This document shows positions 1,117 through 60,990 of a stretch of 64,000 bases of DNA, piece after piece; the first letter of the stretch is position 1, and the number at the start of each line of letters is the position of its first letter. A program made the position numbers and the translations under genes. This stretch comes from Betaproteobacteria bacterium (lineage in GTDB: Bacteria > Pseudomonadota > Gammaproteobacteria > Burkholderiales > SG8-41): NCBI GenBank assembly GCA_021732605.1, contig JAKFUS010000021.1:10186-74185 (forward strand). The letters run 5' to 3'. Under the pieces are notes generated by a model, which saw only the letters and a list, made by a program, of their open reading frames with translations, had not been told where the DNA came from and did not search any database.

Positions 1117-1120
1117 TAAA

Positions 1121-1156
1121 GATATTATAAAATATCAATAAAAACAAATACTTATA
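1121..1156 (-). repeat. AT-rich recurrent element, copy A (reverse orientation)
   Basis: The reverse complement reads tataagtatttgtttttattgatattttataatatc. It shares the 21-nt core ATAAGTATTTGTTTTTATTRA with copies at 6684, 9910 and 48481. It lies in the 60-nt Gfo-Bug intergenic spacer. Confidence 0.8.
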
Positions 1157-1176
1157 TACACCAAAGGAGAAAACCA

Positions 1177-2154
1177 ATGAAACATTGCAAGCGCACTGCC
1201 CTGGCTGCCGCACTGTCCCTGCTCGCCTGCGGCACTGCATTCAGCGCAGACAACTATCCCAACCGCCCGGTGCGCATGGTCGTGCCGTTTGCGCCGGGTG
1301 GCGCTTCGGACTTCGTCGGCCGCATCATCCAGCCGGCGATGGCGGATCTGCTGAAACAGCAGGTGGTTGTCGATAACCGCCCGGGCGCCGCCGGCAACAT
1401 CGGCGTGGAAGTCGGTGCCCGCGCCAGCCCTGACGGTTACACCTTCATTCTTGGCAATGTCGGCACGATGGCGATCAATCCGGTGTACTACACCAAGTTC
1501 CCGTACAAACCGCTGAGAGACCTGATCCCGATTACGCAACTGGTCGACGTGCCGGGCAGCCTGGTGGTGCATCCCGCATTGCCGGCAAAATCAGTGAAAG
1601 AACTGGTTGCCTATATGAAGGCCAACCCGAACAAGCTCAACTTTGGCTCGCCGACGGCGAGCAGCGCCAATTCGCTGGAAGCGCGCATGTTCCTCAATGT
1701 CACCGGCACCAGTGCTACTGAAGTGCCCTACAAGGGCGGCGCCGGTCCGGCCACTGTCGGCCTGCTGGCCAATGAAGTGCAGTTCATGTTTGCCACTTTT
1801 TCTTCAACGCTGACCTTCGCCAAGCAGAACCGCCTGCGCATGCTGGCCATCGTCGCACCGGAACGCAGCTCCGCCATGCCCGACGTGCCGACCATGCGTG
1901 AACAGGGTTTCAACATGGTGGTTGGCTCCTGGCAGGGGCTGTTTGTGCCCAAAGGTACGCCGACACCGGTGGTCAACACCCTCTTCAAGGTTGGCCAGGA
2001 CGCCATGAAGGATGCCACTGTCAACAAGCGTCTCGGCGACAGTGGTGTCGCCGTCGTCACCAGCAAGAGTCCTGCGGATTTCACCGCCTTTGTCAAAGGC
2101 GAGACCGAGCGTTTCGGCAAGGTGATCCGCGACTCCAACATCCAGACCGAATAA
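1177..2154 (+). CDS. Bug/TctC family tripartite tricarboxylate transporter substrate-binding protein
   Basis: 325 aa with a signal peptide, then the family hallmark YPNRPVRMVVPFAPGGASD. RBS aaggag lies upstream. Confidence 0.85.
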   Translation: MKHCKRTALAAALSLLACGTAFSADNYPNRPVRMVVPFAPGGASDFVGRIIQPAMADLLKQQVVVDNRPGAAGNIGVEVGARASPDGYTFILGNVGTMAINPVYYTKFPYKPLRDLIPITQLVDVPGSLVVHPALPAKSVKELVAYMKANPNKLNFGSPTASSANSLEARMFLNVTGTSATEVPYKGGAGPATVGLLANEVQFMFATFSSTLTFAKQNRLRMLAIVAPERSSAMPDVPTMREQGFNMVVGSWQGLFVPKGTPTPVVNTLFKVGQDAMKDATVNKRLGDSGVAVVTSKSPADFTAFVKGETERFGKVIRDSNIQTE

Positions 2155-3320: not shown

Positions 3321-4319
3321 TTGTTCAACGTCGCAGTCGTCGGCATGGGCTGGTGGGGCAAGATCATTGTCCCGCTGCTCAAGACCAGCAAAAAAATCAA
3401 TGTCAGCACCGTCGTCGAGATCAATGCCGCGGGCATTGCCGATTTTGCAAAACAGCATGGCGTCAAAGTCGTCACCGACCTTCAGGATGTTCTGAAGGAT
3501 CCGGCCATCCAGGGTGTCGTGCTGTGCACCCCGCACACCCAGCACACCGAGCAGATCATTGCCGTTGCGAACGCCGGCAAACACGTGTTCTGCGAAAAAC
3601 CGCTGTCGATGACCCGTGCCGATGTGCTGCGCGCAATCAAAGCCGTCAATGACAACAAGGTGGCGCTGGCCGTGGGCCATGAACGGCGCTTCGAGCCACC
3701 TGTGCTGGAAGCCATGCGCATCATCCAGTCCGGGGAGCTTGGCACACCGCTGCAGGTTGAGGCCAATTTCAGCCAGGACAAATTCCTCGCACTGGCCGCT
3801 GACAACTGGCGGCTCTCCGGCAAAGAAGCGCCAGCCGGTCCGATGACGGCCACCGGCATTCATCTGCTTGATTTGTCCGTCGGCGTATTTGGCGAAGCCG
3901 AGCGCGTATTCGCCAGCGTCAAACAACTGGGCAGCCAGCTCGTGAACGGCGATACATTGGCGATTCTCGTGACGTTCAAGAACGGCGGCCATGCACTGAT
4001 CAGCGCAATACTCGCCACACCGTTCGAAGGGCGCTTCGCGGTGTACTGCAACAAGGGCTGGATCGAAGTGCGCGACAAAACCCATCCCGAAGCGCCGGAA
4101 GGCTGGGTGCTGACCAAGACACTGCGCGGCGGCAAGAAAGAAGTCCGTGAGTTCCCGCCGGCACCCAATGTGCTTGCCAACCTCGAAGCCTTTGCCGATG
4201 CCGCCGAAGGTCGTGCGCCCTACCCGGTGCCACAATCGCAGATGATTGCCAACATTTCCGCGCTGGAAGCGATCTTCAAATCAGCCTCCACCGGCACCAT
4301 CGTCAACGTCGAATCCTGA
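3321..4319 (+). CDS. Gfo/Idh/MocA family oxidoreductase (paralog of 6714..7682)
   Basis: 332 aa with VGMGWWGK Rossmann and CEKPL motifs. TTG start; the stop overlaps the next gene's start (ATGA-type junction at 4319). Confidence 0.8.
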   Translation: MFNVAVVGMGWWGKIIVPLLKTSKKINVSTVVEINAAGIADFAKQHGVKVVTDLQDVLKDPAIQGVVLCTPHTQHTEQIIAVANAGKHVFCEKPLSMTRADVLRAIKAVNDNKVALAVGHERRFEPPVLEAMRIIQSGELGTPLQVEANFSQDKFLALAADNWRLSGKEAPAGPMTATGIHLLDLSVGVFGEAERVFASVKQLGSQLVNGDTLAILVTFKNGGHALISAILATPFEGRFAVYCNKGWIEVRDKTHPEAPEGWVLTKTLRGGKKEVREFPPAPNVLANLEAFADAAEGRAPYPVPQSQMIANISALEAIFKSASTGTIVNVES

Positions 4320-5497
4320 TGGCCAAGACTGCGCCGACTCATTCCGATCTCAGCGAACGCGCACAGGCGCTGGTGCCGGTATTGCGCGAGCGTGCACCGC
4401 GCACGGAAGAGCTGCGACGCATCCCTGACGACACCATCAGCGACCTGCATGCCAGCGGCCTGTTCCGCATGCTGCAACCGAAACGTGTCGGCGGCAGCGA
4501 ATTGTCGTACGAGGCCATCGTTGAACTGTCGGCCATCATCGGCCGTGGTTGTGGTTCGACAGCCTGGGTACTGGCCAACCTCGCCAATCACCACTGGATG
4601 CTGGCGCTGTGGCCACGCGCTGCGCAGGATGAAATCTGGGGCCCGTCACCGGATGCACTGGTCGGCTCGGCGCTGATGTTCCCCGCCGGGCACGCCGAGC
4701 GCGACGGCAAAGGATTCCGTTTGTCCGGCCGCTGGAAATTTTCCAGCGGCATTGATGCCTGCGACTGGTGCATGCTCGGTGGCATTGCCAGCAGCGCCGA
4801 AGGCGAACTGCCGCAATATTATGTGTTCGTCGTGCCCAGGGCCGATTACAAAGTCATCGATACCTGGCATGTCGCGGGACTGCGCGGTACCGGCAGCAAG
4901 GATGTCGAGGTCAGCGAAATTTTCGTGCCTGCGCATCGCGCGCTGACTGTCGAGCAGATGAAAGGTGGTGTTGCGCCCGGCGGTGAAACCGCCCCGCTGT
5001 ATCGCCTGCCGGTGTTCGACATGTTTCCTTATGTGGTGGCCGGCGCTGCGCTGGGCATCGCCCAGGGCGCGATCGAAGAGTTCAGTGCCGACATCCGCCA
5101 CCGCATCACCGCCTACGCCACGACGCTGCTTGCCGACTATGCAACCACCCAGGCGCGACTGGGTCATGCGGCATCGGCGATCTCCGCTGCAGAACGCATC
5201 CTGATCGGCAATTGCAGGGAAGCCATGGCACTGGCAGCACACAATGCCGTGCCGGCGCGCGACCTGAAAATCCGCATGCGTCGCGACGGCGCCTACGCCG
5301 CGCATCTGTGCACCGAAGGTGTCGATCTGCTGTTCGGCGCCGGTGGTGGAGAGTTTCTTTACAACCAGCAGGTCATACAGCGCTCTTTCCGCGATATCCA
5401 CGCCGCAAACAGCCATTACGCGCTGGCCTGGGATATCGCCACCACGATGGCGGGTAAATCCCTGCTCGGCATTGCGGCCGACTTGCCTACCCTGTAA
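4319..5497 (+). CDS. Acyl-CoA-dehydrogenase-fold flavin-dependent monooxygenase, oxygenase component (HsaA / HpaH-C2-like)
   Basis: 392 aa. The N-terminal pattern (RAPRTEELRRIPDDTISDLHASGLFRMLQPKRVGG ... GSTAWV) resembles HsaA/C2-type two-component hydroxylases. A flavin reductase gene follows directly. Confidence 0.7.
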   Translation: MAKTAPTHSDLSERAQALVPVLRERAPRTEELRRIPDDTISDLHASGLFRMLQPKRVGGSELSYEAIVELSAIIGRGCGSTAWVLANLANHHWMLALWPRAAQDEIWGPSPDALVGSALMFPAGHAERDGKGFRLSGRWKFSSGIDACDWCMLGGIASSAEGELPQYYVFVVPRADYKVIDTWHVAGLRGTGSKDVEVSEIFVPAHRALTVEQMKGGVAPGGETAPLYRLPVFDMFPYVVAGAALGIAQGAIEEFSADIRHRITAYATTLLADYATTQARLGHAASAISAAERILIGNCREAMALAAHNAVPARDLKIRMRRDGAYAAHLCTEGVDLLFGAGGGEFLYNQQVIQRSFRDIHAANSHYALAWDIATTMAGKSLLGIAADLPTL

Positions 5498-5502
5498 CGC
5501 TG

Positions 5503-6024
5503 ATGGCTGATACACCGACCGCACCGGCCAGTCCGGAACTTGATCCGCGCGACTTTCGCAATGCGCTCGGCCTGTTCGCCACCGGCGTCACCATCGTCAC
5601 CACCAAAACCAGTGACGGCGAACCCATAGGCCTGACCTGCAATTCCTTCAGTTCGGTCTCGCTGTCGCCGCCACTGGTGTTGTGGAGCCTGTCGCTGCGC
5701 TCACCCAATCTGCCGAATTTTCTGCAGGCCACGCATTTCGCGATCAACGTGCTGGCGCATGACCAGATTCCGCTGTCGCAGCGTTTTGCCAAACCGGTGC
5801 CGCGCAAGTTCGAAGGCATTGCCCATGGTTTCGGCGCGCACGGCATGCCGCTGCTCGATGGTGCTGCGGCACAGTTCGAGTGCCGCACTGAAGCCCGGCA
5901 CTACAGCGGCGACCATGTGATATTCATCGGCCAGGTATTGCAATACAGCTATGCCGACCGTGCACCACTGGGTTATTTCCGCGGTTCTTATGCCGCGATA
6001 CAGCCCGTTTTGCAAAACTCCTGA
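5503..6024 (+). CDS. Flavin reductase family protein (reductase partner of the two-component monooxygenase)
   Basis: 173 aa. FRNALGLFATGVTIVTT and LTCNSFSSVSLSPPLVLWS are hallmarks of the flavin reductase-like domain. Confidence 0.8.
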   Translation: MADTPTAPASPELDPRDFRNALGLFATGVTIVTTKTSDGEPIGLTCNSFSSVSLSPPLVLWSLSLRSPNLPNFLQATHFAINVLAHDQIPLSQRFAKPVPRKFEGIAHGFGAHGMPLLDGAAAQFECRTEARHYSGDHVIFIGQVLQYSYADRAPLGYFRGSYAAIQPVLQNS

Positions 6025-6045
6025 TTCACCCTGAAAGGAATCGCC

Positions 6046-6681
6046 ATGACTCAGCGCATCCGCGGCATCACCGATGAGGAAGCCGTTGGGCCCGCCAGGG
6101 ATCTGTTCGACGCATCGAACAAAATGCTCGGCCGCACCGCCAACCTGATGCGCATCCTGTCGCACAGCCCGTATGTCGCGCGCTGGATCCTGCCCTTCAT
6201 CGCCGCGGTGCGCCAGCCCAATGCCGGTGCAGTATCGGATGTGCGCCTGCGCAACCTCGCGGTACTGAAGACTTCAACCATCAACGACTGTCATTACTGA
6301 ACGGAACACAATTACGTGCTTGGTCAAGCACTGGGTCTGAAAGACGAAGAGTTCGACGCCCTGAAAGGCGACTATCAGGCAAGTCCGCTGTTCAATGCCA
6401 AAGAGAAGGCGACCATCGCGTGGTCTGAGGCGATGACACTGAACACCGCGAAACGCGACAACAAGGCCTGGGATGCGATGCGCCGCGAATTCAATGACGC
6501 TGAAATCGTCGAAATCTCCCTCGCCTGTTCAATGTTCAACATGATCAACCGACTCAATGATTCCTTCCGCACCGAACTGGAGAGCGTGGAATACAACCGC
6601 CGCCAGCACGGCGCGGTCGGCGTCACCCGCGCAACGCTGGAAGAGTATGCCTGCCGGATTTGTGCAGCAAAGAGTGAATGA
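6046..6681 (+). CDS. AhpD/carboxymuconolactone-decarboxylase (CMD) family protein with an in-frame TGA at 6298-6300 (candidate selenocysteine codon; alternatively a nonsense pseudogene)
   Basis: ORFs 6046..6300 and 6316..6681 share one frame and are separated only by the TGA. Read-through gives 211 aa. The TGA replaces the second Cys of the CxxC motif (INDC-H-Y-TGA-T-E-H). Confidence 0.55.
6312..6334 (+). promoter_or_regulatory. SECIS-like RNA hairpin downstream of the in-frame UGA
   Basis: Perfect 6-bp stem gtgctt/aagcac (6316-6321 / 6326-6331) with apical loop ggtc (6322-6325), which starts 21 nt after the UGA. A possible lower stem forms with C6315 bulged. Confidence 0.45.
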
Positions 6682-6683
6682 CC

Positions 6684-6720
6684 TTATAAATATTTGTTTT
6701 TATTGATAATTTTATGATCA
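6684..6720 (+). repeat. AT-rich recurrent element, copy B (forward)
   Basis: ttataaatatttgtttttattgataattttatgatca. Its 3' end contains the ATG (6714) of the next gene, which has no recognisable Shine-Dalgarno sequence. Confidence 0.8.
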
Positions 6721-7682
6721 ATGCAGCTATCGTCGGACTCGGCTGGTGGGGCAAAAATATCGCCGATGCCGTGCAGGGCAAAAGCAACAAGCTGCACTTT
6801 GTGCATGGCGTGACCCAGGAACTCGACGCCACGCGCGAATACGCCAAGGCCAAAGGTTTCAGGCTGTCGGCGACGCTGGCAGAAGCTCTGGCGGACCCGG
6901 CAGTGCAGGCCGTGGTGCTGGCCACGCCCCACTCGCTGCATGCCGACCAGGTGGTGCAGGTGGCGCGCGCCGGCAAAGCCGTGTTCTGCGAAAAACCGCT
7001 GTCACTGGTCCGCACCGATGCCGAACGTGCGGTGGCCGCGTGCAAGGCTGCAAAAGTGCCGCTGGGTGTAGGCCAGAACAAACGCTTCTGGCCATCGATG
7101 GCGGAACTGCGCCGCGTCATTGCCAGCGGTGCGCTGGGCCGCGTCATGCACGTCGAAGGCCATTACAGCAACGAACACTCCAGTAAATTTTTTGCACCGT
7201 GGCGCGATCTGCCGGCCGAAACGCCAGGCGCCGGCATGACCGGCACCGGCATCCACATCCTTGATGCCTTTGCCAACATCGCCGGCCCGGCTGAGCAGCT
7301 CACCGCGCAGTTCATTGCCCATCGCAGCGGTGCCGATCCGCGCGACACGGTTTCCGTATTGTTCAGGTTCGCCAACGGCATCAGCGGTTTCCTTGGTGCC
7401 GTGCGCGCCTCCCCGCTGTATTTCCGCGTGCATGTGTTCGGCGATGAAGGCTCGGTCGAAGCGCTGGACGAAACGCGGACCATCATCCGCCTCAAGGGCG
7501 GCAGGACCGAAGTGAAGGATTTCGCGAAAATCGACTCAGTGCTGGCAGAGATGGATGCGTTTGCCGATGCGGTGGCGGGTGTGGCGCCCTACCCGATCAC
7601 CACCGATGAAATGGTAAACACCATTGCCTCATTCGAAGCCGTGATCCAATCGATTGCCGGGGGAAATACCGTCAGGCTGTAG
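6714..7682 (+). CDS. Gfo/Idh/MocA family oxidoreductase
   Basis: 322 aa with VGLGWWGK and CEKPLS motifs; a clear paralog of 3321..4319. Confidence 0.8.
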   Translation: MINAAIVGLGWWGKNIADAVQGKSNKLHFVHGVTQELDATREYAKAKGFRLSATLAEALADPAVQAVVLATPHSLHADQVVQVARAGKAVFCEKPLSLVRTDAERAVAACKAAKVPLGVGQNKRFWPSMAELRRVIASGALGRVMHVEGHYSNEHSSKFFAPWRDLPAETPGAGMTGTGIHILDAFANIAGPAEQLTAQFIAHRSGADPRDTVSVLFRFANGISGFLGAVRASPLYFRVHVFGDEGSVEALDETRTIIRLKGGRTEVKDFAKIDSVLAEMDAFADAVAGVAPYPITTDEMVNTIASFEAVIQSIAGGNTVRL

Positions 7683-7768: not shown

Positions 7769-8737
7769 ATGCTGCTGCGGTTGGCTGTCGGTTTGGCATC
7801 TGTTTTGTTTTTTGCGGGCGCTGCCCAGGCCCAGCAACCCTACCCCAGTCGGGCCATTCGTGTGGTGGTTCCCTATCCGCCCGGCGGCGGCAACGACATC
7901 ATCGGCCGTATTGTTGCCGACGATCTCGGCAAGCGGCTGGGCCAGCAGGCGCTGGTGGACAACCGTCCCGGCGGCAGCACGGTCATCGGCGCGGAAATCG
8001 TCGCACGTGCAGCACCCGACGGCTACACGATCCTGGTCACCAGCCACACGACTTATGCGCTGATTCCCAATCTGCGAGCCAGGCTGCCGTACGATCCGCA
8101 GCGCGATTTCGAACCGGTGTCGCTGCTCGCCACACAATCGTTCGCGCTGGCGGTGCATCCGTCGTTGCCGGCGAACAGCGTCAAGCAGGTCATCGCACTG
8201 GCCAAAGCCAAACCCGGGCAACTGACTTTCTCTTCAGCAGGCGCGGGCACCGGTACGCATTTCTCCGGTGAGCAATTCAAGGTGCTGGGCAAACTGGACA
8301 TGCTGCATGTGCCGTATAAAGGTGGAAACACCGCGGTGAATGCGGTACTCAGCGGCGAAACCACGATGACTTTCGGCAGCTTGTCGGCACTGTCGCCGTA
8401 TGTCACCGCCAAAAAGCTGCGCGTGATTGCAGTGACCAGCGCAAAACGTTCGCCGCTGGATCCGAAGATTCCGACGATTGCCGAAAGCGGCCTGCCCGGT
8501 TACGAGATGACACCCTGGTACGGCTTGACCGTGCCCAAAGGTACGCCGCAGGCCATCGTCGAACGATTGAACACGACCATCATTACCGGGCTGCAGACGC
8601 GCGACATGCAGGAGCGCATGGCGCGCGTGGGTTACGAGCCCGAAGGCAGCACGCCGGCGCAACTGGCGGCACACATCAAGGCCGAACTGGCCCGTTATGC
8701 CGTGTTGATCAAGACCATCGGTTTCAAGGAGGAGTAG
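7769..8737 (+). CDS. Bug/TctC family substrate-binding protein
   Basis: 322 aa with a signal peptide followed by YPSRAIRVVVPYPPGGGND. Confidence 0.85.
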   Translation: MLLRLAVGLASVLFFAGAAQAQQPYPSRAIRVVVPYPPGGGNDIIGRIVADDLGKRLGQQALVDNRPGGSTVIGAEIVARAAPDGYTILVTSHTTYALIPNLRARLPYDPQRDFEPVSLLATQSFALAVHPSLPANSVKQVIALAKAKPGQLTFSSAGAGTGTHFSGEQFKVLGKLDMLHVPYKGGNTAVNAVLSGETTMTFGSLSALSPYVTAKKLRVIAVTSAKRSPLDPKIPTIAESGLPGYEMTPWYGLTVPKGTPQAIVERLNTTIITGLQTRDMQERMARVGYEPEGSTPAQLAAHIKAELARYAVLIKTIGFKEE

Positions 8738-8757: not shown

Positions 8758-9735
8758 TCAGCGTGCAAGCCCGAGATCCAGCAATACATTTTTCAGATAG
8801 GCGTAGTCGGTCTCGAGATCCTTTGCCAGCTGCGCGCTGCCGGCGAAGTTGTCGCTCCAGTAGTTTTTTTCCAGGTCGTCTTTCCATTCCGGTGCGTGCA
8901 CCATTTTGCGCAGCGCGTCCTCCCAGAATGTGACTTGCGCGGCGCTGAGTCCCTTCGGAGCAAAAATCGCCCGCCAGTTGCCATAGACGAAATCGGCCCC
9001 CTGCTCCCTCCAGGTCGGCGCGGTCGCCAGCGGACCGGACAGCCGCACGGGTGCCGCAACGCCGATGACCCGCACGGTGCCATTATTGACGTGGACGACT
9101 GCGTTCACCGCACCGGCGACGGCCACATCAATATGCCCGCCAAGCATCGCGGTGATTGCTTCCGCAGAACCCTTGAACACCACAGGCTTTAAATCCCGTG
9201 CATTGCCACCCAGTGATTTGATCAGCAAACCCGAAGCGACGTGGCGGCTGCTGCCGAAGGCATTGGCAAAACCCACGACGACCGAACGCGGGTCCTTCTT
9301 CAGCCGCTCGGCGAGGTCGCGTCCGGTCCTGATCGGTGACTCGGTCCTGACCATGAACACTGCATAATCTTCATAAAGCGAAACCACTGGCGTGAAATCG
9401 CGATGACCGAGCGGACTGGAGCCGAGGATGTTGTTCGACAGCAGCCCGCTGCTCGCAATGTACAGGGCATGGGCATCTCCGGGTTTCTGGCTGACATAGG
9501 TGTAAGCGATGCTGCCGCCACCGCCCGGCTTGTTGATCACCACCAGCGGCACCGGGGCCAGCTTGTTTGTGGTGAAAATGCGCTCCATGATCCGCGCTGT
9601 CTTGTCGTTGCTGCCGCCGGCCGCCGAGCCGGCAACGATTTCGACGTTCTTCTGCGGCAACCACGTCTGGGCGGTCGCAGTGGCGGTTGTTCCCGCAAAG
9701 ACGATTGCCATTGCACACAGCGTCAGCTTTGCCAT
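8758..9735 (-). CDS. Bug/TctC family substrate-binding protein
   Basis: The ORF runs to 9771, but an RBS (ggaggag) precedes the ATG at 9735 (MAKLTLCAM...). It has a signal peptide and the GSAAGGSND motif. Confidence 0.8.
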   Translation of the reverse strand: MAKLTLCAMAIVFAGTTATATAQTWLPQKNVEIVAGSAAGGSNDKTARIMERIFTTNKLAPVPLVVINKPGGGGSIAYTYVSQKPGDAHALYIASSGLLSNNILGSSPLGHRDFTPVVSLYEDYAVFMVRTESPIRTGRDLAERLKKDPRSVVVGFANAFGSSRHVASGLLIKSLGGNARDLKPVVFKGSAEAITAMLGGHIDVAVAGAVNAVVHVNNGTVRVIGVAAPVRLSGPLATAPTWREQGADFVYGNWRAIFAPKGLSAAQVTFWEDALRKMVHAPEWKDDLEKNYWSDNFAGSAQLAKDLETDYAYLKNVLLDLGLAR

Positions 9736-9909
9736 CGATTTCTCCTCCAGCAGTGATGAACGGACGATCATTGGCGGCTTTTTTAAATACGATGATTGTT
9801 ATTTGAAGGCCAGTCTATCTTTTGTCGAGGATACGATTGAATGCGCCATCAATCCCTGTGCGGGACACCCTTATTGATTCCGCCCATTGGTCAATCTGGA
9901 GGCCATCTC

Positions 9910-10081: not shown

Positions 10082-12298
<2,217 letters not shown>

Positions 12299-22683: not shown

Positions 22684-23141
22684 AGCACCGCTCCCTTAAA
22701 GATTGGACCATTGGCCTTGGCCAAATGCGGCCATTGGGTCAGCCACAGGTCGGCAAAGGGCTTCACCTTAGCCCCGGAAAGCGACAACCGTTCGGCATTG
22801 GCGATGCTATCCACCCAGATCGTCCGTGCACCCAGTAGCTTGCCGAATACCAGCGCAAAGAATCCTGGCGCTGCCCCGGTCGAGACTACTAAATCGGGCC
22901 GATGCCGAAACACGATACCGAGCATACGGAAAGCCAGCTCCAGCATGGCCATCTTGTTCCGAAGATTCGCGTCCGGTACCACGGAGAGTAGCGCGGGTGT
23001 TACTTCAGCAAGCAAGCCCGGATTAGTGGATACATAGTGCACATCCAGTGCATCAAAAGCTGGCGCGAGGCGACGTAACTGCACCCAGTGTCCGCCGTGC
23101 GAGGCCACGAGCAGAACTTTCCGACGCCGCGCATCAACCAT
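22680..23141 (-). CDS. Alg14/PssD-like glycosyltransferase membrane-anchor subunit
   Basis: 153 aa with VASHGGHWVQL and STGAAPG motifs. It overlaps its Alg13-like partner by 4 nt. Confidence 0.7.
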   Translation of the reverse strand: MVDARRRKVLLVASHGGHWVQLRRLAPAFDALDVHYVSTNPGLLAEVTPALLSVVPDANLRNKMAMLELAFRMLGIVFRHRPDLVVSTGAAPGFFALVFGKLLGARTIWVDSIANAERLSLSGAKVKPFADLWLTQWPHLAKANGPIFKGAVL

Positions 23142-23991
23142 GAAAACCCTTTCCTGCCTGTCTTGAGGACAAATCCTTCTCCCATTGATATTGCGAGAGA
23201 TTTTTGATGCGCTGCTTTGCTAAAATTCGCGACATCAGACTCACGTAAAGATACACCGCCACCTTTAGCCACTTGAGCGGATTGCACAGCACACTCAACA
23301 GCCCTCCCCGGTAATCCTTGACCTCGTTTTTCATGAGTTCCGGGAAACGCGCCGCCAACTCCATCTGCCCCAATCGGCTACGTGTCTTGATCTTGAGCAG
23401 CCAATGCAGGTTGGACGGTGCACGCACATAGGAATAAGCGCCTTCCACATTGCCCCGTTCATGCTCCTTGAACAAGGCTCGAACATAGCCATCATCGGCA
23501 ATCACATCGGGGAACTCGCCAAAGCGCCGTCGGCCCTCTTCCGATAATGCATATACGCCCGCCCCAAGCATGCCGCTTTTGCAATAAGGCAATGATAGCC
23601 AGATGTCGTAATACGAACGTACCGCCCAGTTTGATCCATCGAGCTTCATTACCGGGGTTGGCGAAACAGCCAGCCAGCGGCCGGAATCCAAGGCATCCCT
23701 TATCCTCTCTATGGCACCATCACTGAGAGATACATCTGCATCCATGTAGATCCGCGGAAACCCCTTTGCATGCCGTTCACCTAAGTTGAGAGCACCGACT
23801 TTTGAAGGTATCTGGATTTCCAACACAGTGGCCCCGGGTTCGAAGCGACGTGCCACGACCGCCGTACTGTCTATGCAGCCATTGCAGACGACAACGATAA
23901 CATCGTCCTTGCATAACTGTCCGATCAATGACTGAAGAGTATACGAAATTACTGTGGCCTCGTTGTGGGCCGGAATTATAGTACTTGTCAC
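23134..23991 (-). CDS. Glycosyltransferase family 2
   Basis: 285 aa with an IIPAHNE start and a DAD motif (IYMDADV). Confidence 0.8.
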   Translation of the reverse strand: MTSTIIPAHNEATVISYTLQSLIGQLCKDDVIVVVCNGCIDSTAVVARRFEPGATVLEIQIPSKVGALNLGERHAKGFPRIYMDADVSLSDGAIERIRDALDSGRWLAVSPTPVMKLDGSNWAVRSYYDIWLSLPYCKSGMLGAGVYALSEEGRRRFGEFPDVIADDGYVRALFKEHERGNVEGAYSYVRAPSNLHWLLKIKTRSRLGQMELAARFPELMKNEVKDYRGGLLSVLCNPLKWLKVAVYLYVSLMSRILAKQRIKNLSQYQWEKDLSSRQAGKGFHG

Positions 23992-24674
23992 GATTTATCT
24001 TTGTTGAAGAACCCTTGGTAAACGACGAGCGACTTGGTAAGTCCGAAGATTTTTTCCTTCCACAAGATGGCATTAGGAAAGAGCTGGGCAAGCTCATCTT
24101 TACTCATCAATCGCACCTCATCCACAAGATCCTCGGCATGCTTTCGATCGGCCGCCGGCCCTCGCCATCCGCAGCGAAAACGCATGAGCAAAGCCACTCT
24201 CAAAGACCTTGGCATCCATTGCCAGCCCGGCACGTGAAAATGTGGCTCAATGGGGAACCAATAGTTTGGCGTCTGGATCCAATAAGCTCTTGCAACTCGC
24301 TGTACTTCGGCGGCCATCTTTGACTGATTTTCAAGCGAGAACAGATGTTCGATAACGGAATTGCTGTAAGCCACATCGAACGCACCATCAGCATATTCAG
24401 ATAGATCAAGTGCATTGCCGTCCTTGACAAGCACATTCTCAAAGGCAAATTCCTGGGCACCTTTATTGACAACAGTAATCTCAACACCATCCTTCCCCAG
24501 CCAACCACGTTGTTGCCAATAGCCTAAGGTGCCGCCGACATCGATAATCTTTATAGGCTTAGGCAGCGATTCGACCAACGAGGTAAACAGCGCAAATCTT
24601 TGTGCACGCAATTTGTTCGCCAGAGAGCTAGAACGTCCAACATCAGCAAAACCACGCAGATCTAAGAAACTCAT
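23988..24674 (-). CDS. Class I SAM-dependent methyltransferase
   Basis: 228 aa with motif I IKIIDVGGTLG and a later FDVAYSNSVIEH. Confidence 0.7.
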   Translation of the reverse strand: MSFLDLRGFADVGRSSSLANKLRAQRFALFTSLVESLPKPIKIIDVGGTLGYWQQRGWLGKDGVEITVVNKGAQEFAFENVLVKDGNALDLSEYADGAFDVAYSNSVIEHLFSLENQSKMAAEVQRVARAYWIQTPNYWFPIEPHFHVPGWQWMPRSLRVALLMRFRCGWRGPAADRKHAEDLVDEVRLMSKDELAQLFPNAILWKEKIFGLTKSLVVYQGFFNKDKS

Positions 24675-26146
24675 CGGCCTACCTGCCCTACGTTATTACG
24701 ATAGATAAGCCACATCTGGTCACCAAATTTATTTCGATAATCACCTCCATCCTTCTTGGTGCCATGTTTGGTTTTATAGCGCCCTGCTCCGCGGATGCAA
24801 TTGTTATCTTTATCAGGGCCATAGACTTTCATGTAGTCATCGGGATTATTGTTATATGAAGCGCAGGGGTCCGGATTCGCCCAAACCCCGTCAATTACCC
24901 ATCGATCCGCGTATTCCAGAAATGCGTTGTTCGCCCACCCCTCTTCTAGCCCCAGCATTCTTACTGCAAGCGCAGTGTATTTCCAGGGCATCGCTGTGCA
25001 ACAAAATTGGTAGGCACCTCCAATTTCGTGGCCGCCGCCATCAATGTAACCATAGGGATCACGACAATCGCGCGAACCTCGTCCAAGGCGGGTGGTCAAC
25101 CAATAGTTGCTATCCGAGCAAGATGCGCCATACAAAGCCTTCCCGGCTTTTTCGCTAAAATACACCTGCTCATCTTCAGAAAAAACAGCGCGCTTCGCTG
25201 ATTGTAAAAAATCGTCACGCCCCAACAAGCGCGCTGCGAACAAGATGGGCAATTTTCGGCCGTTACCATGACCACCAGCGCCAGGCCATTTCATCCCTGT
25301 CATCGCCATCCCTTTGAGATCAACGCCCATTTGTAAGTAGTTTATCAGCGCCAGGCGGTGTGTTTGAACCTCAAAATTAAAGTCATTTAGCATAAACCGC
25401 AGAGGAGCAACCGCATTGTCTGTCGCGATTGAGGCCCCAAAATCCGGCATGTTGTCTATAGGATGCATATCCCTGCCCACCCAATTTTCCAGATGATCCA
25501 GTTGAACCCCTCGATAACGTTTCAGGATCTTCTCGAAGTCACCATACTTAGCTTCAGTGCAACACCCGACGGGCAACCTAGGAATATGTTTAAGCAAATC
25601 CTTGGGCAAGGCGTAGTGCGTCTTTTCTTTTCCAAAATAAGGCGGTCGCAGAAACCCGCTTGAATAAGCGAGAGGCGTCCTCAGCACCGTAAGCACAGCA
25701 GCAAACTGTAAGCAAGGTCTGCATTTTGAATTGGTATTCTTTTTGGAGTGCTCCGCTGAAATGCTAACCGCCTTGACGACTGATGAATCGCCTCTGACAC
25801 GTAACGGCAAGCGCACATTCAAGGTGCCGTCATAACCGCTGATCCTCTGGTCGAAACCCTGCATGGTTTTGGTTGAAGGATTGATTTCAATTCCACTAAA
25901 CCCGACGCTGGTCACTGGATCAACAGATTTGATCACAACGACTTCCGAGGCATCGGCGCTTACCCACCAATCGCCATTGGCATACCGGCCACAGTGATAC
26001 GGTTTGTCAAAGCTAAATACGATATCGTTTTTAGAACCGGACGGCGCCGGATAACTGATACTGACGCAAGTGCCAACATCGGCATATGCCAAAGACAAAA
26101 ACTGAGCACAAACGGCAAAAAAGCAGGCAACAATCCGCGGGATCAT
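24671..26146 (-). CDS. Hypothetical secreted Cys-rich protein
   Basis: 491 aa with a signal peptide (..SLAYA). I recognise no family. It is translationally coupled (4-nt overlaps) on both sides within the glycan cassette. Confidence 0.5.
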   Translation of the reverse strand: MIPRIVACFFAVCAQFLSLAYADVGTCVSISYPAPSGSKNDIVFSFDKPYHCGRYANGDWWVSADASEVVVIKSVDPVTSVGFSGIEINPSTKTMQGFDQRISGYDGTLNVRLPLRVRGDSSVVKAVSISAEHSKKNTNSKCRPCLQFAAVLTVLRTPLAYSSGFLRPPYFGKEKTHYALPKDLLKHIPRLPVGCCTEAKYGDFEKILKRYRGVQLDHLENWVGRDMHPIDNMPDFGASIATDNAVAPLRFMLNDFNFEVQTHRLALINYLQMGVDLKGMAMTGMKWPGAGGHGNGRKLPILFAARLLGRDDFLQSAKRAVFSEDEQVYFSEKAGKALYGASCSDSNYWLTTRLGRGSRDCRDPYGYIDGGGHEIGGAYQFCCTAMPWKYTALAVRMLGLEEGWANNAFLEYADRWVIDGVWANPDPCASYNNNPDDYMKVYGPDKDNNCIRGAGRYKTKHGTKKDGGDYRNKFGDQMWLIYRNNVGQVGR

Positions 26147-27138
26147 GCTCCCACCCCACCGCTTCTATCCGACATATACCACTCCGCTTTTCGACTCAAT
26201 ACTTCGCCCCAGATAGTTGCAGCCTCACGAGAAGAAGAGCGACCGAATGCCGAAAGAACTGAGTGAAATGCATACCGACTTAAAGGCCATAAGAAAAGTA
26301 AGTGAAAACCTAGCCGCTTTGACCAAAACGAAAAATGAATTTGGATCAGAAGTTTTTTTGCATTAAGCAGGCGGACAAGCTTGTCGACTCGAATCTTTTC
26401 TGAGGCACCACCATAGTGAATGATTGTCGCAGTAGATGTCACTATGGGTTTGGCACCTAGCGCTTGGGCCCGCAAGCACAAATCCGCTTCTTCGCCATAC
26501 ATGAAGAACTCTTCACGGAATCCCCCCAGAGGCTCCCACAACCCCCTCTTAACCAGTAGAAAGCACCCAGAAACTATATCTACCTCGCGTTCACCACCAC
26601 GATCCCACCCCCCAATTCCTTCTGGATTAAAAATAATTGATCGCCTAAAAAGCGACGTCAGACCCAAAGCCTGACAAAGCAAACTCCATACTGATTGCCG
26701 AGACCAGCAGGACGCAGGATTGAGTGTGCCATCGCCAAACAGCGTCCTTCCACCCCAAATTCCGGAGGCCGGATTTGCATTCGCAAACTCGATCAAACGA
26801 TCAATGGCAGAATTTATTACTACAGTATCCGGGTTGAGCAGAAGGAGGTAATGCCCTTTCGCATTAATAGCTGCCAAGTTATTTCCAGCCGCAAAGCCAA
26901 GGTTTTCAATGGATGGAATCAAAGTAACTTTATTGCCAAATTCCTCTCTTATTGCCACAACCGATCCATCTGCTGAAGCATTATCGAGAACGATCAACTC
27001 AAATTCCGAGTTCTTGGTTTCTCTAAATACTGAACGCAAACATTCAAGCGTCATCTCCCTAGTGTTATAGCTGATCACGATGATCGACAAAATCGGCGTG
27101 ATCATAAGAAGAAAATATTTTTCATAGGAAGATAGCAA
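26143..27138 (-). CDS. Glycosyltransferase family 2
   Basis: 331 aa with ILSIIVISYNT, LDNASADGS and a DxD region. The start may instead be the ATG at 27105. Confidence 0.8.
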   Translation of the reverse strand: MLSSYEKYFLLMITPILSIIVISYNTREMTLECLRSVFRETKNSEFELIVLDNASADGSVVAIREEFGNKVTLIPSIENLGFAAGNNLAAINAKGHYLLLLNPDTVVINSAIDRLIEFANANPASGIWGGRTLFGDGTLNPASCWSRQSVWSLLCQALGLTSLFRRSIIFNPEGIGGWDRGGEREVDIVSGCFLLVKRGLWEPLGGFREEFFMYGEEADLCLRAQALGAKPIVTSTATIIHYGGASEKIRVDKLVRLLNAKKLLIQIHFSFWSKRLGFHLLFLWPLSRYAFHSVLSAFGRSSSREAATIWGEVLSRKAEWYMSDRSGGVGA

Positions 27139-27149
27139 TCCGGTCTAGC

Positions 27150-28460
27150 CTAGTAGGCTTTTACATTCAGATAGGCTGCTTCATGGTGCCCGCCATCCCA
27201 AGCCACTGCAGCACTAACCATTGCCCCTAGCAAAATATGGCTCAACAAGAGTGGCGGACCAAATAACCCAACTGACATACTTGCGATATCCAGAGCCATT
27301 AGGGTTGCACCAAAGGCGAATAGCATATTTCGCCTCGACGCATTGAGGTCATTACGCCACGCATAAATGACTTTTTTCATTGCTAAATAATGAGTGGCCA
27401 CATACATAATCAGAGCAGGTACTCCACCATAGATGGCCACTATCAAAAAATGGTTGACTATATCGATATGATCTCTGCCATCCAATATCTCTCCCCAATG
27501 ATGGGGCCAATTGGAACCCACCCCAACTAACCAGTATTCACGCCATTGCGAGAAAGCCACCTCTAACAGCCTTGTACGGTACCAAGCGGTATGCGGATCT
27601 AAAGCCAGATAATCGATGAGGTTGTAAAAATGCCGATTTGAAATGATTTCTAAAAAGATAGATATGGCTATCAAAAGATAAAGTCCTGGCTTGATCAGTC
27701 CCGGGCGCCTCTCGAGCCAAATGAATAGGATTAGTGCAAAACAGGCGATCCAAGGACCACTGGACATCGATGAAAGAGCGCCTAGAAGCGCTGAAGACAC
27801 AGCGATAAAAAAAATAACTTGGCTCTTTACATAGCCACGTAGCGACCATAGCAATCCCATTAATAGCATCATCGCTATGCCAAAATATATATGAACTGAT
27901 GTACTTCCTTTAGCCCTAAGAAAACCATATCGATATTGATCGTATTTGTCGATCCAACGCCAAAACCGATGATCAGTTAATGATGCATATGGTGCGGCAT
28001 ATCCGGCTGATTCGCAGACACCTAGTAGGCCCATAAAAACTGCAGTGATCGCCAATCCAGTGTAGAGACCCTTTACATCCTCAGGTGATCTGACAGTGAT
28101 TCTGGCAAGAAAATACATCAATACTGTGTCGAAACCTCGCCCGATCATCTGGGACACATGAGGAAATTCCGCTCCAGACAATATCGTAGCCAGCACTGTA
28201 TAAACCCATAATAATAAGACTATGGTATCCACCATTCCATAACCCATCACTCGGTATTGCCCCGCAATTAAATACTTAACAAGAAGAACCAACGCCACCA
28301 GTCGGGGCACGGACATCTCTGCAAGCCCCATTGGGATTCGCAAGAATTCTGGCCAAAGCATCATCGACATGATGACAATACCTAGGGCGGCGCCACTACG
28401 CCGGCATGATAATGCCAAGACAATAAATGCAAATGTCACGACCAACGTGACACCAATCAT
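27150..28460 (-). CDS. O-antigen ligase/polymerase-like (Wzy-type) membrane protein
   Basis: 436 aa with about 10-12 TM helices and AT-rich codon usage. Its position in the cassette, next to a flippase, fits this call. Confidence 0.6.
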   Translation of the reverse strand: MIGVTLVVTFAFIVLALSCRRSGAALGIVIMSMMLWPEFLRIPMGLAEMSVPRLVALVLLVKYLIAGQYRVMGYGMVDTIVLLLWVYTVLATILSGAEFPHVSQMIGRGFDTVLMYFLARITVRSPEDVKGLYTGLAITAVFMGLLGVCESAGYAAPYASLTDHRFWRWIDKYDQYRYGFLRAKGSTSVHIYFGIAMMLLMGLLWSLRGYVKSQVIFFIAVSSALLGALSSMSSGPWIACFALILFIWLERRPGLIKPGLYLLIAISIFLEIISNRHFYNLIDYLALDPHTAWYRTRLLEVAFSQWREYWLVGVGSNWPHHWGEILDGRDHIDIVNHFLIVAIYGGVPALIMYVATHYLAMKKVIYAWRNDLNASRRNMLFAFGATLMALDIASMSVGLFGPPLLLSHILLGAMVSAAVAWDGGHHEAAYLNVKAY

Positions 28461-29737
28461 TCTCCTTGCTCCCCAGGCAGTTTCTTCAGAATGATGGCAA
28501 TTCGTAATCGCTTGGTGAAAACTCTCTTGACAGTTCCGATAATGGATTTCAACTTTGCCGTACTATCCAAATTTTCAATCCATAATTTAAACATTGGGAA
28601 GCCAGAATACCGCGGCACCCCGGCTGCGAACATACGAAGCACCCAAAGACGCGCCCATAGCGCCCCTCTGGTTTCCATAAGACCGGGCTGGGAGCGCGGG
28701 AGCAGATCCGGGCTGCTATCTTCCAAAGTCAGATAACCTGCTGCTGATGCTGCCCTGATCACGTCCAGACCTCGCCTAGTCCTGGCGACGATCAACGATT
28801 TCCCGAGTTCTCCATCTTGCACCTTGCGATACCACGGGTCCCCTACCGCGATATCCGCAAACTCACCCGTATGATCCGGGCAAATATAGCAACGCCACTG
28901 GCGATATTGCTGCAAAAAACCCCAGGAATCCGCGTAGGACAACTGCTGAATTTCCTGCTTGCCTTCGCGATTCAAAAACTCCGCAGTCCACATGCCCGGC
29001 CAACCTTTACCCCGGTAGCGCAGTTCCTTGACCGTTGCAGGGTCATCCACCCCATGGGCTCGGAGCAAATCTAGAGTACCCTTGGTAGACGGCACCCCTG
29101 CACAGAAAAAGGCAATCACCAAGCCAAGCTTTTCATCCAACTCCGGTCTTAGTTTTCTTGCGCTCATCACAGCAGCCGCATCGCATGGCTTTCCGATGAA
29201 TACACTTTTTTCTTTGGCGGCTTCAATACGGTCTAGGCCATCGCAGGGGCTGGCGGGCGCGTATCGCGAGCCTGTACGGTCAAGCAAGTCGGTCCGATCC
29301 TTACTGTAAACGGTTTCGTTCAGGTACGGCACATCATGCCGGGCTCCAACATGCAGTGCCCCAGCCATACCTTCCCGCTCAATGCCGTATAGCGCCAATG
29401 CCGTCGCTGCACCCCCACTCGATCCGGAAAAGCGGATCTCGGGGTCAGCTGCGTAGCCCTCCCATACTGCAAGAACCGGCCCCCAGGCATCAAGAAGCTC
29501 AGGCAAGATATCGTCGCGAGCACGCATAGATGCCGGATGCTCAAGTTGCGCGCCCGGGCAAACAGCCAGCGCCTCACCCGATTCCATTATCGCCTTATCC
29601 AAGAGGAAAGGACGCCGCCCATGGTCCATCGTATCTGCCATACGGAATCGTTTTGGTTCGACATACGCACAAACACCGCAGCCGGTACATAGCTGCATTG
29701 CCACGACATCGGCGATCGATTTAATGGGTCGCGACAC
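28457..29737 (-). CDS. Coenzyme F420 hydrogenase/dehydrogenase beta-subunit (FrhB)-like Fe-S protein
   Basis: 426 aa, GTG start, N-terminal ferredoxin-like CTGCGVCAYVEP. This family commonly pairs with polysaccharide pyruvyl transferases. Confidence 0.65.
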   Translation of the reverse strand: MSRPIKSIADVVAMQLCTGCGVCAYVEPKRFRMADTMDHGRRPFLLDKAIMESGEALAVCPGAQLEHPASMRARDDILPELLDAWGPVLAVWEGYAADPEIRFSGSSGGAATALALYGIEREGMAGALHVGARHDVPYLNETVYSKDRTDLLDRTGSRYAPASPCDGLDRIEAAKEKSVFIGKPCDAAAVMSARKLRPELDEKLGLVIAFFCAGVPSTKGTLDLLRAHGVDDPATVKELRYRGKGWPGMWTAEFLNREGKQEIQQLSYADSWGFLQQYRQWRCYICPDHTGEFADIAVGDPWYRKVQDGELGKSLIVARTRRGLDVIRAASAAGYLTLEDSSPDLLPRSQPGLMETRGALWARLWVLRMFAAGVPRYSGFPMFKLWIENLDSTAKLKSIIGTVKRVFTKRLRIAIILKKLPGEQGE

Positions 29738-58816: not shown

Positions 58817-59062
58817 TCACTTCTTGGCAGTCGTGGTGGGCTTGGCCCCGCCTTTTTGTTTTTTGTAACGATCCGCCACCCGGTCCTGCGCCTTGCCGAG
58901 TTCATCGGCATCTTTTTTAGCGGTATCTGCCGCTTTTTTCTTGGCTTCTTCGGCCTTGACCGGATCCACCGGCGGCGGCGCCGGCAGCTTCGCCGAAGCC
59001 ATCCCCACCGCGCCGCATACGATTAATGCCGGAATTATTTTCCAAAGTTTTGGCGCGTTCAT
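58817..59062 (-). CDS. Small secreted Lys/Ala-rich protein, last gene of the formate dehydrogenase operon
   Basis: The ATG at 59062 overlaps the gamma-subunit stop (ATGA). It has a signal peptide (..GMASA) and a low-complexity charged tail. Confidence 0.45.
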   Translation of the reverse strand: MNAPKLWKIIPALIVCGAVGMASAKLPAPPPVDPVKAEEAKKKAADTAKKDADELGKAQDRVADRYKKQKGGAKPTTTAKK

Positions 59063-60105
59063 GCTTTCCACCCCTCCTTCAAAGCTGCTGCCGCAACAGG
59101 GCTTGCCACCCCGCCGCCGCCTTTGTTGTTGGCCAACGTATCCTGGTACCAGAATTCATGATGCTCCTTGGCCCAGGCTTCGTCCACATAACCGGTGCGC
59201 ATGGCTTCGTAGGCGCCTTCAGTGCCTATGGTGCCGATATAGATATGGCCAAGAGACAGAGTCATGAAGACGACAGCGGCGATCGCATGGATCACGTTCG
59301 CTTGCTGCATTAACGCCCGCCCCTGCTCAAAGTTCGGAAAATTCAGCACGAATCCGGTGACGCTGACCACGATGCCGAGCAAGGTTACACCGCCCCAGAA
59401 CCAAGCCTTTTCGCCGGCGTTAAAACGTCCCGACGGAACATGTTTGCCGCTGAACAATCCGCCCGCCTTGCTGATCCACTGCAAGTCATACAACTTCGGC
59501 AGGTTGTCTTTGACGAAGGTGATAAACATCAGGATGGTGCAGAACGCGAACACCGGGCCGACGAAGTTATGGATGTTCTTGGCCAGTATCGCGAGCCATG
59601 CAAACAACGTGTAACCAAAAATCGGCAGCAGAATGTGTTTGCCGAACAGGATGATGATGCCGGTCACTGCCAGCAGTACGAAACTGATTGCCACCGACCA
59701 ATGCACCATGCGATCCCATGAGCCGAAGCGCAACAGTTGGCGTCCCGTCTGTTTTTCATGAAGCTTGATCGGGCCGCGCCACCAGTAAAACGCACCGATC
59801 AGCGCCATCACCGCAACGATCAGCCAGCCGCCATAAATGGTGATTACGCCGTTGCGCAGCTGGCGCCAGGTTTCACCGGCCGGCTGCATCAGCACGCTGG
59901 ATTCGACGCCACGCACCTGCGTGGTCTGGTACGGGTTATCGCCGCCGCGAACATCACTCCAGAACGGCTGGTTATTGCCCGGCTGGGTCCGCTGCTGTGC
60001 GGCCTGCTCTTTGGCCGAGCCAGGCTCAGCCGCCACCACTGGCAATGAAAACAAACCGCAGGCGAGTATTGCCGCTACCAGCCATTGCTTCAGACGAACC
60101 TGCAT
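59059..60105 (-). CDS. Formate dehydrogenase gamma (cytochrome b) subunit
   Basis: ATG at 60105 with RBS aaaaggag. A signal-like N-terminus is followed by a 4-TM cytochrome-b core with conserved His residues (MVHWS.., NIHNF.., HIYIG). Confidence 0.85.
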   Translation of the reverse strand: MQVRLKQWLVAAILACGLFSLPVVAAEPGSAKEQAAQQRTQPGNNQPFWSDVRGGDNPYQTTQVRGVESSVLMQPAGETWRQLRNGVITIYGGWLIVAVMALIGAFYWWRGPIKLHEKQTGRQLLRFGSWDRMVHWSVAISFVLLAVTGIIILFGKHILLPIFGYTLFAWLAILAKNIHNFVGPVFAFCTILMFITFVKDNLPKLYDLQWISKAGGLFSGKHVPSGRFNAGEKAWFWGGVTLLGIVVSVTGFVLNFPNFEQGRALMQQANVIHAIAAVVFMTLSLGHIYIGTIGTEGAYEAMRTGYVDEAWAKEHHEFWYQDTLANNKGGGGVASPVAAAALKEGWKA

Positions 60106-60118
60106 GGCTACTCCTTTT

Positions 60119-60343
60119 CTAGTTGCCAGCAACGCGCGCGTATTCGTTCTGGTTGCCGTTGCGGGCCTTGATGGCCTTTTCCCAGGCCACCTGGTCACCC
60201 TTGAACTGGGCATTGTCCCAGGGCTGCTTGTCGGGTTTGCCCTGATACTGGCCCTGTTTGTACACGGTCACCGGCTGCTTCTCGCCGCAACCAGCCAGCA
60301 ACACCAGACTTCCGATCAGCGCTGCAAGCAGTATCCGCGTCAT
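60119..60343 (-). CDS. Small lipoprotein encoded between the FDH beta and gamma genes
   Basis: 74 aa with lipobox LLAGC. It overlaps the beta-subunit stop by 4 nt. Confidence 0.5.
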   Translation of the reverse strand: MTRILLAALIGSLVLLAGCGEKQPVTVYKQGQYQGKPDKQPWDNAQFKGDQVAWEKAIKARNGNQNEYARVAGN

Positions 60344-60963: not shown

Positions 60964-60990
60964 ACAGTTCTCCTCGCGAGTATCGGGTCG

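Follow-up and report, generated by a model that had tools for sequence, protein, structure and literature searches.

The question raised by this locus is whether an in-frame TGA at positions 6298-6300 of the 64-kb stretch of DNA analysed here (64,000 nucleotides, hereafter the window) terminates a short protein or is read through as selenocysteine (Sec). On the plus strand, positions 6046-6681 form a single frame that runs through 84 amino acids, the TGA (6298..6300, codon 85), a further 126 amino acids and a true stop codon, also TGA, at 6679..6681, and the read-through product of this frame has 211 residues. An earlier reading made from the sequence alone (the sequence-only reading) had joined the ORFs 6046..6300 and 6316..6681 into one gene of this length, and translation confirmed the single frame. 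The local context of the TGA is TINDC-H-Y-[TGA]-TEHNYVLGQALG, or, written out through the codons of the hairpin described below, ...TINDC-H-Y-[TGA]-T-E-H-N-Y-V-L-G-Q-A-L-G.... The proposed Sec codon is thereby the last codon of a predicted redox motif, C82-H-Y-U85 (TGT CAT TAC TGA, 6289..6300, plus strand). The peptide predicted to span residue 85 is DC(H)YU-TEHNYVLGQALGLK, and the predicted masses are ~23 kDa for the full-length protein and ~9 kDa for a product ending at the UGA. TGA is an ordinary stop in this genome, where it terminates this gene as well as no fewer than six others among the window genes that were checked; reading through the internal TGA would therefore require a local signal for recoding. 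When the window was scanned by inspection for further TGA-split ORFs, no second convincing selenoprotein candidate was seen.

Results

The read-through product has an AhpD/CMD fold that spans the TGA

For protein alignment and searches, residue 85 was entered as X or C. With Cys as residue 85, Pfam PF02627 (CMD) matched the product only weakly, at 18.8 bits for a cut-off of 23, in a match spanning the TGA. The best NCBIfam matches were AhpD/YciW relatives labelled '(seleno)protein' by NCBI, and all of them lay below their cut-offs; NF053654 'YciW-related (seleno)protein' gave 67 bits (cut-off 310) and NF041238 'AhpD_rel_CFYUT (seleno)protein' 34 bits (cut-off 175), while TIGR01926 'peroxidase-related enzyme' gave 56.2 bits with Cys at residue 85 (curated cut-off 81.8). 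With no NCBIfam model reaching its cut-off, the clade to which this protein belongs appears to go unrecognised by current annotation models. In one alignment (A1), all 16 members matched TIGR01926 at E <=0.001, the best with E 2.7e-17, and the window protein scored 49.9 bits there. Since its score is below the 81.8 cut-off, the window protein falls in a subfamily neighbouring TIGR01926 and is not a member by the NCBI threshold.

Sequence matches in the PDB were to the AhpD-core proteins 2ijc, 7xw1, 2o4d and 2gmy, down to E = 2.5e-11, over residues 67-171, a range that includes the UGA position. The AlphaFold model of the read-through product was all-helical (pLDDT 87.8, pTM 0.84) and placed the redox motif, residues 82-85, in a loop directly N-terminal of the helix 87-95. 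When this model was compared with the PDB by Foldseek, the top 37 matches were all AhpD/CMD proteins, with target-normalised TM scores of up to 0.87. From these matches and the model, the AhpD/CMD fold of the 211-residue product can be called secure. As had been suggested, neither half would be a complete domain; the Pfam, PDB and fold matches all span the TGA junction.

The TGA occupies the position of a conserved Cys

A search of 5.8 billion proteins returned 1,375 homologues; among those of full length, identity to the window protein reached 66% at best. This ceiling gave the first hint that gene callers had truncated the closer relatives. The full-length Cys homologues cover 96-100% of the read-through product of the gene at 6046..6681, which we take as complete, given its single frame, the AlphaFold model and a dN/dS of ~0.1 on both sides of the TGA. 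The TGA had been said to sit where the second Cys of the CxxC motif is expected, and the alignment bore this out: the column is Cys in 15/15 full-length homologues aligned, within an invariant C-x-Y-C, and is Cys also in L025 and L027-L036. In the nearest Cys forms (P0001, P0002 and L025) the codon corresponding to the TGA is TGC or TGT.

TGA-bearing orthologues form one clade under purifying selection

Orthologues were sought in one genome per GTDB species and in JGI and ENA metagenome contigs. The GTDB-species scan gave 25 loci with 76-97% amino-acid identity, nearly all of them labelled Burkholderiales/Betaproteobacteria MAGs (JAIEPF01, JAIETP01, LNDW01, JALHRQ01 and CAMCYP01 are examples), and the metagenome contigs added 31 orthologues with 72-94% identity. 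The sequence-only reading had proposed checking whether orthologues carry Cys, lack the hairpin and show further lesions. The opposite was seen, in that all 56 orthologues (72-97% identity) had the TGA at codon 85 together with the hairpin and had no other lesion. The window is at most 88% identical in nucleotide sequence to any orthologue locus, and the orthologue loci therefore belong to distinct lineages rather than being copies of a single genome.

Stop codons and dN/dS were analysed for 52 sequences, each with exactly one stop. Pairwise Nei-Gojobori estimates for these gave dN/dS values of 0.105 on the 5' side of the UGA and 0.116 on its 3' side, with dS ~1. The same purifying selection after the TGA as before it rules out a pseudogene, and the two sides of the UGA are constrained as a single gene. 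A neighbour-joining tree placed all 52 full-length Sec-type sequences in one clade, with no Cys sequence within it; identity inside the Sec clade was at least 69%, and the closest Sec-Cys pair was 73% identical. Conservation of UGA and hairpin extends through the whole of this monophyletic Burkholderiales clade.

A hairpin directly 3' of the UGA is constrained at the nucleotide level

The candidate recoding signal lies 15 nt downstream of the TGA. The perfect 6-bp hairpin GUGCUU-GGUC-AAGCAC that had been described at 6316-6331 was confirmed (GTGCTT-GGTC-AAGCAC in the DNA); it occurs once in the window and so is not a repeat element. From 57 sequences RNAalifold returned as consensus a bulged 9-bp hairpin (6312..6334, plus strand), which consists of a 3-bp lower stem (6312-6314/6332-6334), a 1-nt bulge at 6315, a 6-bp upper stem (6316-6321/6326-6331) and the apical loop GGUC (6322-6325), the last being invariant in the 57 sequences. 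The lower stem with a bulged C6315 that the sequence-only reading had thought could form is identical to this consensus. Counted from the U of the UGA, the hairpin spans nt 15-37 and its loop nt 25-28. The lower stem of the minimum free energy structure (nt 5-13 with 35-42) was rejected, its pair 8-39 being broken in 15/19 distinct sequences.

Pairing was retained in 99% of cells across the 57 sequences. Five pairs had one-sided compatible changes (C-G/U-G, U-G/C-G, A-U/G-U and, twice, U-A to U-G), one of which arises through a replacement of Tyr90 by Arg (UAC to CGN) that preserves the pairing. Changes in the upper stem were rare, with U-A to U-G in 3 sequences and a single U-C mismatch (L067). 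The hairpin is nearly invariant and no pair among the 57 sequences had compensatory, two-sided changes; covariation thus supplies no proof, and it is the invariance at synonymous sites that carries the argument. This was measured in the first 26 sequences, over 95 conserved codons with at least four-fold degeneracy. Only six of these 95 kept the same codon in every sequence, and each of them lies directly 3' of the UGA: T86 (ACG) immediately after it, and V91 (GTG), L92 (CTT), G93 (GGT), A95 (GCA) and L96 (CTG) in the hairpin. Q94 (CAA) was fixed too, which makes codons 91-96 a run of six invariant codons (permutation p = 3e-5), whereas elsewhere in the gene shared degenerate codons were identical between pairs in only 62%. 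The hairpin is thus constrained at the nucleotide level.

This constraint also reaches the protein. The peptide VLGQAL (residues 91-96) is invariant in the Sec clade, while positions 91, 92, 94 and 95 vary in the Cys forms; since the invariance is confined to the Sec clade, the RNA element freezes the peptide sequence. Homologues with no more than 66% identity to the window protein are all of the Cys type and have no hairpin, and the three Cys homologues that were checked (P0001, P0002 and L025) were unable to form it, with +7.8 to +17.4 kcal/mol in that register. Taken alone, the folding energy of the window hairpin is unexceptional (-8.3 kcal/mol; z = -0.32 relative to shuffled sequences; z = +0.83 in a second single-sequence test), and its significance therefore derives entirely from the comparative data. 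The element has the features by which a bacterial SECIS has been recognised before, a stem-loop immediately 3' of the UGA and an apical loop that is small and includes a G (PMC1088965).

The whole window had no Rfam matches at the gathering threshold, and SECIS_2 and SECIS_3 (RF01988 and RF01989), run over 6250-6400 with E values up to 10, returned only noise, although the fdhF element, used as a positive control, scored 87.1 bits on RF01988 (SECIS_2). The covariance-model check that the sequence-only reading had recommended thus gave no match, and the window hairpin is not a member of the RF01988 and RF01989 families. As the control covers formate-dehydrogenase SECIS only, this negative says little on function.

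Discussion

We propose that the UGA at 6298-6300 in this AhpD/CMD-fold gene very probably encodes Sec and that the hairpin at 6312-6334 is its SECIS. The sequence-only reading had put forward the same candidate, and the conservation of TGA and hairpin in the orthologues, the dN/dS values and the alignment with Cys forms together support it strongly. We infer that Sec is the inserted residue, that SelB binds the hairpin, and what the substrate would be. The frame 6046-6681 would accordingly encode a 211-residue thiol-selenol oxidoreductase of the AhpD/CMD fold with the redox centre C82-x-x-U85. In translation, the mRNA hairpin would act as a bacterial SECIS and bring SelB-GTP-Sec-tRNA(Sec) to a ribosome that has paused on the UGA, where this complex would outcompete RF2, and the UGA would be read as Sec. 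The Sec would stand in place of the second Cys of CxxC, the position that we take to be the attacking nucleophile in M. tuberculosis AhpD. Sec85 could then cycle with Cys82 via a selenenylsulfide and so reduce a peroxide, a disulfide or a similar oxidised substrate.

Genes for Sec insertion were looked for in and around the window. ARAGORN found no tRNA genes, and so no tRNA-Sec, in the 64-kb window, and tblastn with E. coli queries found no SelA, SelB or SelD in the window or in ~364 kb of related loci. Nor were selA, selB or selD found in four additional contigs that cover the formate dehydrogenase (FDH) region of relatives. Look-ups of exact proteins gave no record for the 84-amino-acid fragment, the Gfo/Idh/MocA oxidoreductase or FDH alpha. 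In one relative (L086, 87% nucleotide identity, reached via FDH beta) the ~7 kb past the window end, next to the FDH operon, contained molybdenum-cofactor and FDH accessory genes and no sel genes. The alpha subunit of formate dehydrogenase contains Sec in E. coli FDH-N. As had been noted earlier, the one encoded in the window (60991-63927, minus strand) uses Cys, in QARICHS (TGC 63304-63306, minus strand); it is the only formate dehydrogenase seen in the window and consequently gives no independent sign of Sec use. One explanation that would fit these absences, and with them the lack of compensatory covariation and of an Rfam SECIS match, is that the UGA is recoded site-specifically without selenium, Trp or Cys being inserted by near-cognate read-through or by a suppressor tRNA, and that the hairpin only stimulates read-through. 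We consider this highly improbable. The UGA lies at the redox Cys of CxxC, which is a classic site of Cys/Sec exchange, the invariant GGUC loop equals the loop of the fdhF SECIS and has a comparable spacing, and we know of no hairpin-dependent non-Sec recoding of UGA of this type in bacteria. Moreover, CxxU selenoproteins are known in the family (PMC1088965; PMC13188914).

Another possibility is that the locus is a split gene, in which an 84-amino-acid N-terminal product is followed by a 121-amino-acid product that starts at the GTG at 6316, and that the invariant sequence is a re-initiation signal. The GTG is itself invariant, and GenBank and IMG do call two ORFs; in the MAG JAIEPF01, for example, the public records split the gene into MBY0269219.1 (84 amino acids) and MBY0269218.1 (121 amino acids), both named 'hypothetical protein'. 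What lies between the UGA and the GTG is informative here. This 15-nt spacer of five codons (6301..6315, plus strand), which codes for T-E-H-N-Y, contains no ATG, GTG or TTG, and it varies mostly synonymously (GAA/GAG, CAC/CAT, AAT/AAC), His88 being invariant in the Sec and Cys forms alike. Since the spacer evolves as coding sequence, it is translated straight through the TGA, and this speaks against re-initiation at GTG 6316. The nucleotide invariance also extends five codons past the GTG, forming a perfect palindrome, and the second redox residue would be lost from a split protein. Every Cys homologue is a single polypeptide, and the matches to Pfam, PDB and fold library all run across the junction; two separate products are therefore even less credible than recoding without selenium. 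A recent nonsense mutation or pseudogene, which the sequence-only reading had kept as its alternative given that one base change turns TGC or TGT into TGA, or a sequencing error can be given practically no weight, as TGA is present in 57/57 clade sequences (56/56 orthologues) from independent assemblies with dS up to ~1, with no further lesions and a dN/dS of ~0.1 that is still 0.116 after the UGA, and as two Logan contigs that derive from other sequencing runs match window positions 6282-7502 with 100% identity, TGA included, so that the TGA at 6298-6300 is not a read error.

The gene belongs to a compact cluster of co-directional genes on the plus strand (3321-7682), where it is preceded by genes assigned by Pfam to a Gfo/Idh/MocA oxidoreductase (3321-4319), an acyl-CoA-dehydrogenase-like flavin monooxygenase component (4319-5497) and a flavin reductase (5503-6024). 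It is followed after 32 nt by a second Gfo/Idh/MocA oxidoreductase gene (6714..7682, also from Pfam), which is syntenic in 9 loci. The upstream gene order is shared with eight orthologue loci (L001, L003, L004, L005, L016, L018, L019 and L020). Around most other orthologues the cluster differs and includes a Zn-dependent alcohol dehydrogenase, a PEP-utilising enzyme, 2-hydroxyacid dehydrogenases and a fumarylacetoacetase-family gene, these assignments having been made by eye from translations, without a family search. As the two neighbourhoods have no common partner, gene context fixes no substrate or pathway, and by analogy with AhpD a general role as a peroxide or disulfide reductase is the best inference for this protein.

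AhpD-like CxxU selenoproteins are already known, and the window clade is therefore new within a known kind: it is a new clade, currently mis-annotated, of a well-known selenoprotein type, and the mechanism is not new. We found no publication describing it in the literature searched. GenBank and IMG store this widespread clade as two truncated ORFs, labelled 'hypothetical' or 'alkylhydroperoxidase family', and its fragment clusters contain 177 and 46 sequences. An AhpD-like CxxU protein with a SECIS in the coding region is textbook and offers no new principle, so the value of the finding is practical. The clade would justify a new selenoprotein annotation model, and it provides a clear teaching example of an RNA structure in a coding region that freezes both codon choice and amino-acid sequence (VLGQAL). 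It would also add a non-FDH selenoprotein to the Betaproteobacteria, which bears on the retention of the Sec machinery where formate dehydrogenase uses Cys. Whether the clade is defined by a separate, single-origin conversion of Cys to Sec in the AhpD superfamily, specific to these uncultured Burkholderiales, is a more speculative matter, and we put this forward only tentatively and as rather doubtful. If true, an entire Sec machinery would be maintained in the lineage for a redox protein other than FDH, in contradiction to the early picture, from a 2006 survey, of FdhA as the sole selenoprotein family in Betaproteobacteria (PMC1794560).

Comparison with known systems

Knowledge of AhpD-like CxxU selenoproteins goes back to 2005, when 27 sequences of this kind (COG2128) were reported from Sargasso Sea data (PMC1088965). 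The AhpD-like 1 family was later among the most abundant selenoprotein families of the GOS data, with 299 sequences (PMC2398784), and a 2026 review lists AhpD-like proteins under TIGR01926, together with an 'AhpD-related' family, NF041238 (PMC13188914). The earlier surveys recognised selenoproteins by a conserved TGA/Cys pair, at least two TGA sequences and, downstream, a hairpin whose small loop has a G (PMC1088965; PMC2398784), and the window gene has all three. The AhpD-like selenoproteins (COG2128/YciW, TIGR01926) share with it the AhpD/CMD fold, a CxxU motif with Sec for the second Cys, a hairpin that follows the UGA closely and bears a G in its small apical loop, and an abundance of Cys homologues. 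The selenoproteins of TIGR01926 are mostly marine, whereas the window clade comes from uncultured Burkholderiales/Betaproteobacteria MAGs and from metagenomes. The NF041238 family has a motif, C-F-Y-U-T, that closely parallels the C-H-Y-U-T of the window protein; however, the match covers only part of the 357-position model, and the window protein is a member of neither NF041238 nor NF053654.

Among solved structures, M. tuberculosis AhpD and the AhpD-core/CMD proteins 2gmy, 2ijc/2o4d, 6k40, 3c1l and the Bmp8 debrominase (6ohi) have the same all-helical fold (target-normalised TM 0.75-0.87) and likewise carry their CxxC at the start of a helix. They differ in that all of them use Cys, and their identity to the window protein is 13-30%. 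The partners and substrates of the solved AhpD-core proteins include AhpC, lipoamide and bromopyrroles, none of which is indicated by the gene context in the window.

The closest parallel for the hairpin is the SECIS of E. coli fdhF. The two differ in their stem sequences, which are unrelated, and in the distance from bulge to loop, which is 6 bp in the window hairpin and 3 bp in fdhF. The loop in fdhF lies at nt 22-25 from the U of the UGA and that of the window hairpin at nt 25-28, which is 3 nt, or one codon, further; the spacing from UGA to loop given by the sequence-only reading, 21 nt against 18 nt in fdhF, was correct in both figures. Both elements lie in the coding region right after the UGA and have a single-nucleotide bulge. 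Their apical loops are identical, the GGUC that had been named for fdhF being present in the fdhF sequence that we retrieved. In E. coli the determinants of SelB binding are the G and U of the SECIS loop together with a bulged U, and the C-terminal domain of SelB recognises the loop's GpU as its motif.

UGA context and SECIS-like hairpin

The base 3' of the in-frame UGA (window 6298-6300), the proposed Sec codon of the AhpD-like gene (window 6046-6681, plus strand), was A in all 57 sequences, that is, the window gene and its 56 TGA-carrying orthologues, and the following codon (window 6301-6303) was ACG in 53 of these and ACC in the other four. The invariable presence of A directly after UGA points to selection on the sequence context in which this stop codon is recoded. 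The upper stem (6316-6321/6326-6331) of the SECIS-like hairpin (window 6312-6334) was otherwise invariant, with departures limited to four related loci from GTDB-species genomes or metagenome contigs. Counting from the U of UGA, A33 is replaced by C in L067 (2253-2300), giving a U-C mismatch, and by G in L069 and L070, giving a U-G pair; both of these also have a change in the lower stem. A30 is replaced by G in L072, again giving U-G. These loci have diverged furthest (72-76% identity) and would make natural test cases for SECIS tolerance.

Gene neighbourhoods and annotation

The loci compared fall into two groups, with unrelated genes around the selenoprotein gene. In the first it belongs to the flavin monooxygenase/Gfo operon, as in window 3321-7682; in the second (L006-L015, L017, L021-L023 and L026) its neighbours are an alcohol dehydrogenase, a PEP-utilising enzyme, 2-hydroxyacid dehydrogenases and a fumarylacetoacetase-family gene. 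In this second setting the end of the upstream gene abuts the selenoprotein start. One contig labelled 'uncultured Acidimicrobiaceae' (L013, CAWGTY010000012.1) is probably mis-binned or mislabelled: its orthologue shares 89% identity with the Burkholderiales-type gene, and the hairpin is identical. GenBank and IMG entries keep the gene as two ORFs of 84 and 120-126 amino acids (for example MBY0269219.1 and MBY0269218.1 in L005, JAIEPF010000004.1), labelled 'hypothetical protein' or 'alkylhydroperoxidase family enzyme', and the fragments fall into protein clusters of 177 and 46 members.

Other genes in the window

An FDH-N-like operon lies on the minus strand (window 59059-63927) and encodes, in this order, an alpha subunit with a twin-arginine signal (60991-63927), a 4Fe-4S beta subunit (60340-60963) and a gamma subunit of the cytochrome b type (59059-60213). 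The sequence-only reading had this formate dehydrogenase using Cys at the Sec position, and the alpha subunit does carry Cys in the motif concerned, QARICHS. The 7-kb stretch upstream of the operon in L086, a relative with 87% nucleotide identity, encodes a NarJ-like chaperone, a large Fe-S protein, DUF3305/DUF3306, MoaA, FdhD and MobA, and contains no sel genes.

An exopolysaccharide/exosortase locus (window ~14000-35000) encodes a sugar transferase, a TPR protein, an EpsH exosortase with DUF3485, family-2 glycosyltransferases and a flippase-type polysaccharide-biosynthesis protein. GC3 falls to 0.43-0.57 at window 23134-28562, compared with ~0.7 elsewhere, and this segment may therefore have been acquired horizontally.

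Downstream of the AhpD-like gene, at a distance of ~3.4 kb, lies a gene for a KatG-type catalase-peroxidase with two peroxidase domains (window 10082-12298, minus strand); the two may share an oxidative-stress theme, or their proximity may be coincidence.

Three genes for TctC/Bug-family periplasmic receptors lie within 10 kb (window 1120-2154, 7769-8737 and 8758-9771). Expansion of this family is typical of Bordetella-like Burkholderiales, and its occurrence here agrees with the taxonomy given for the related MAGs.
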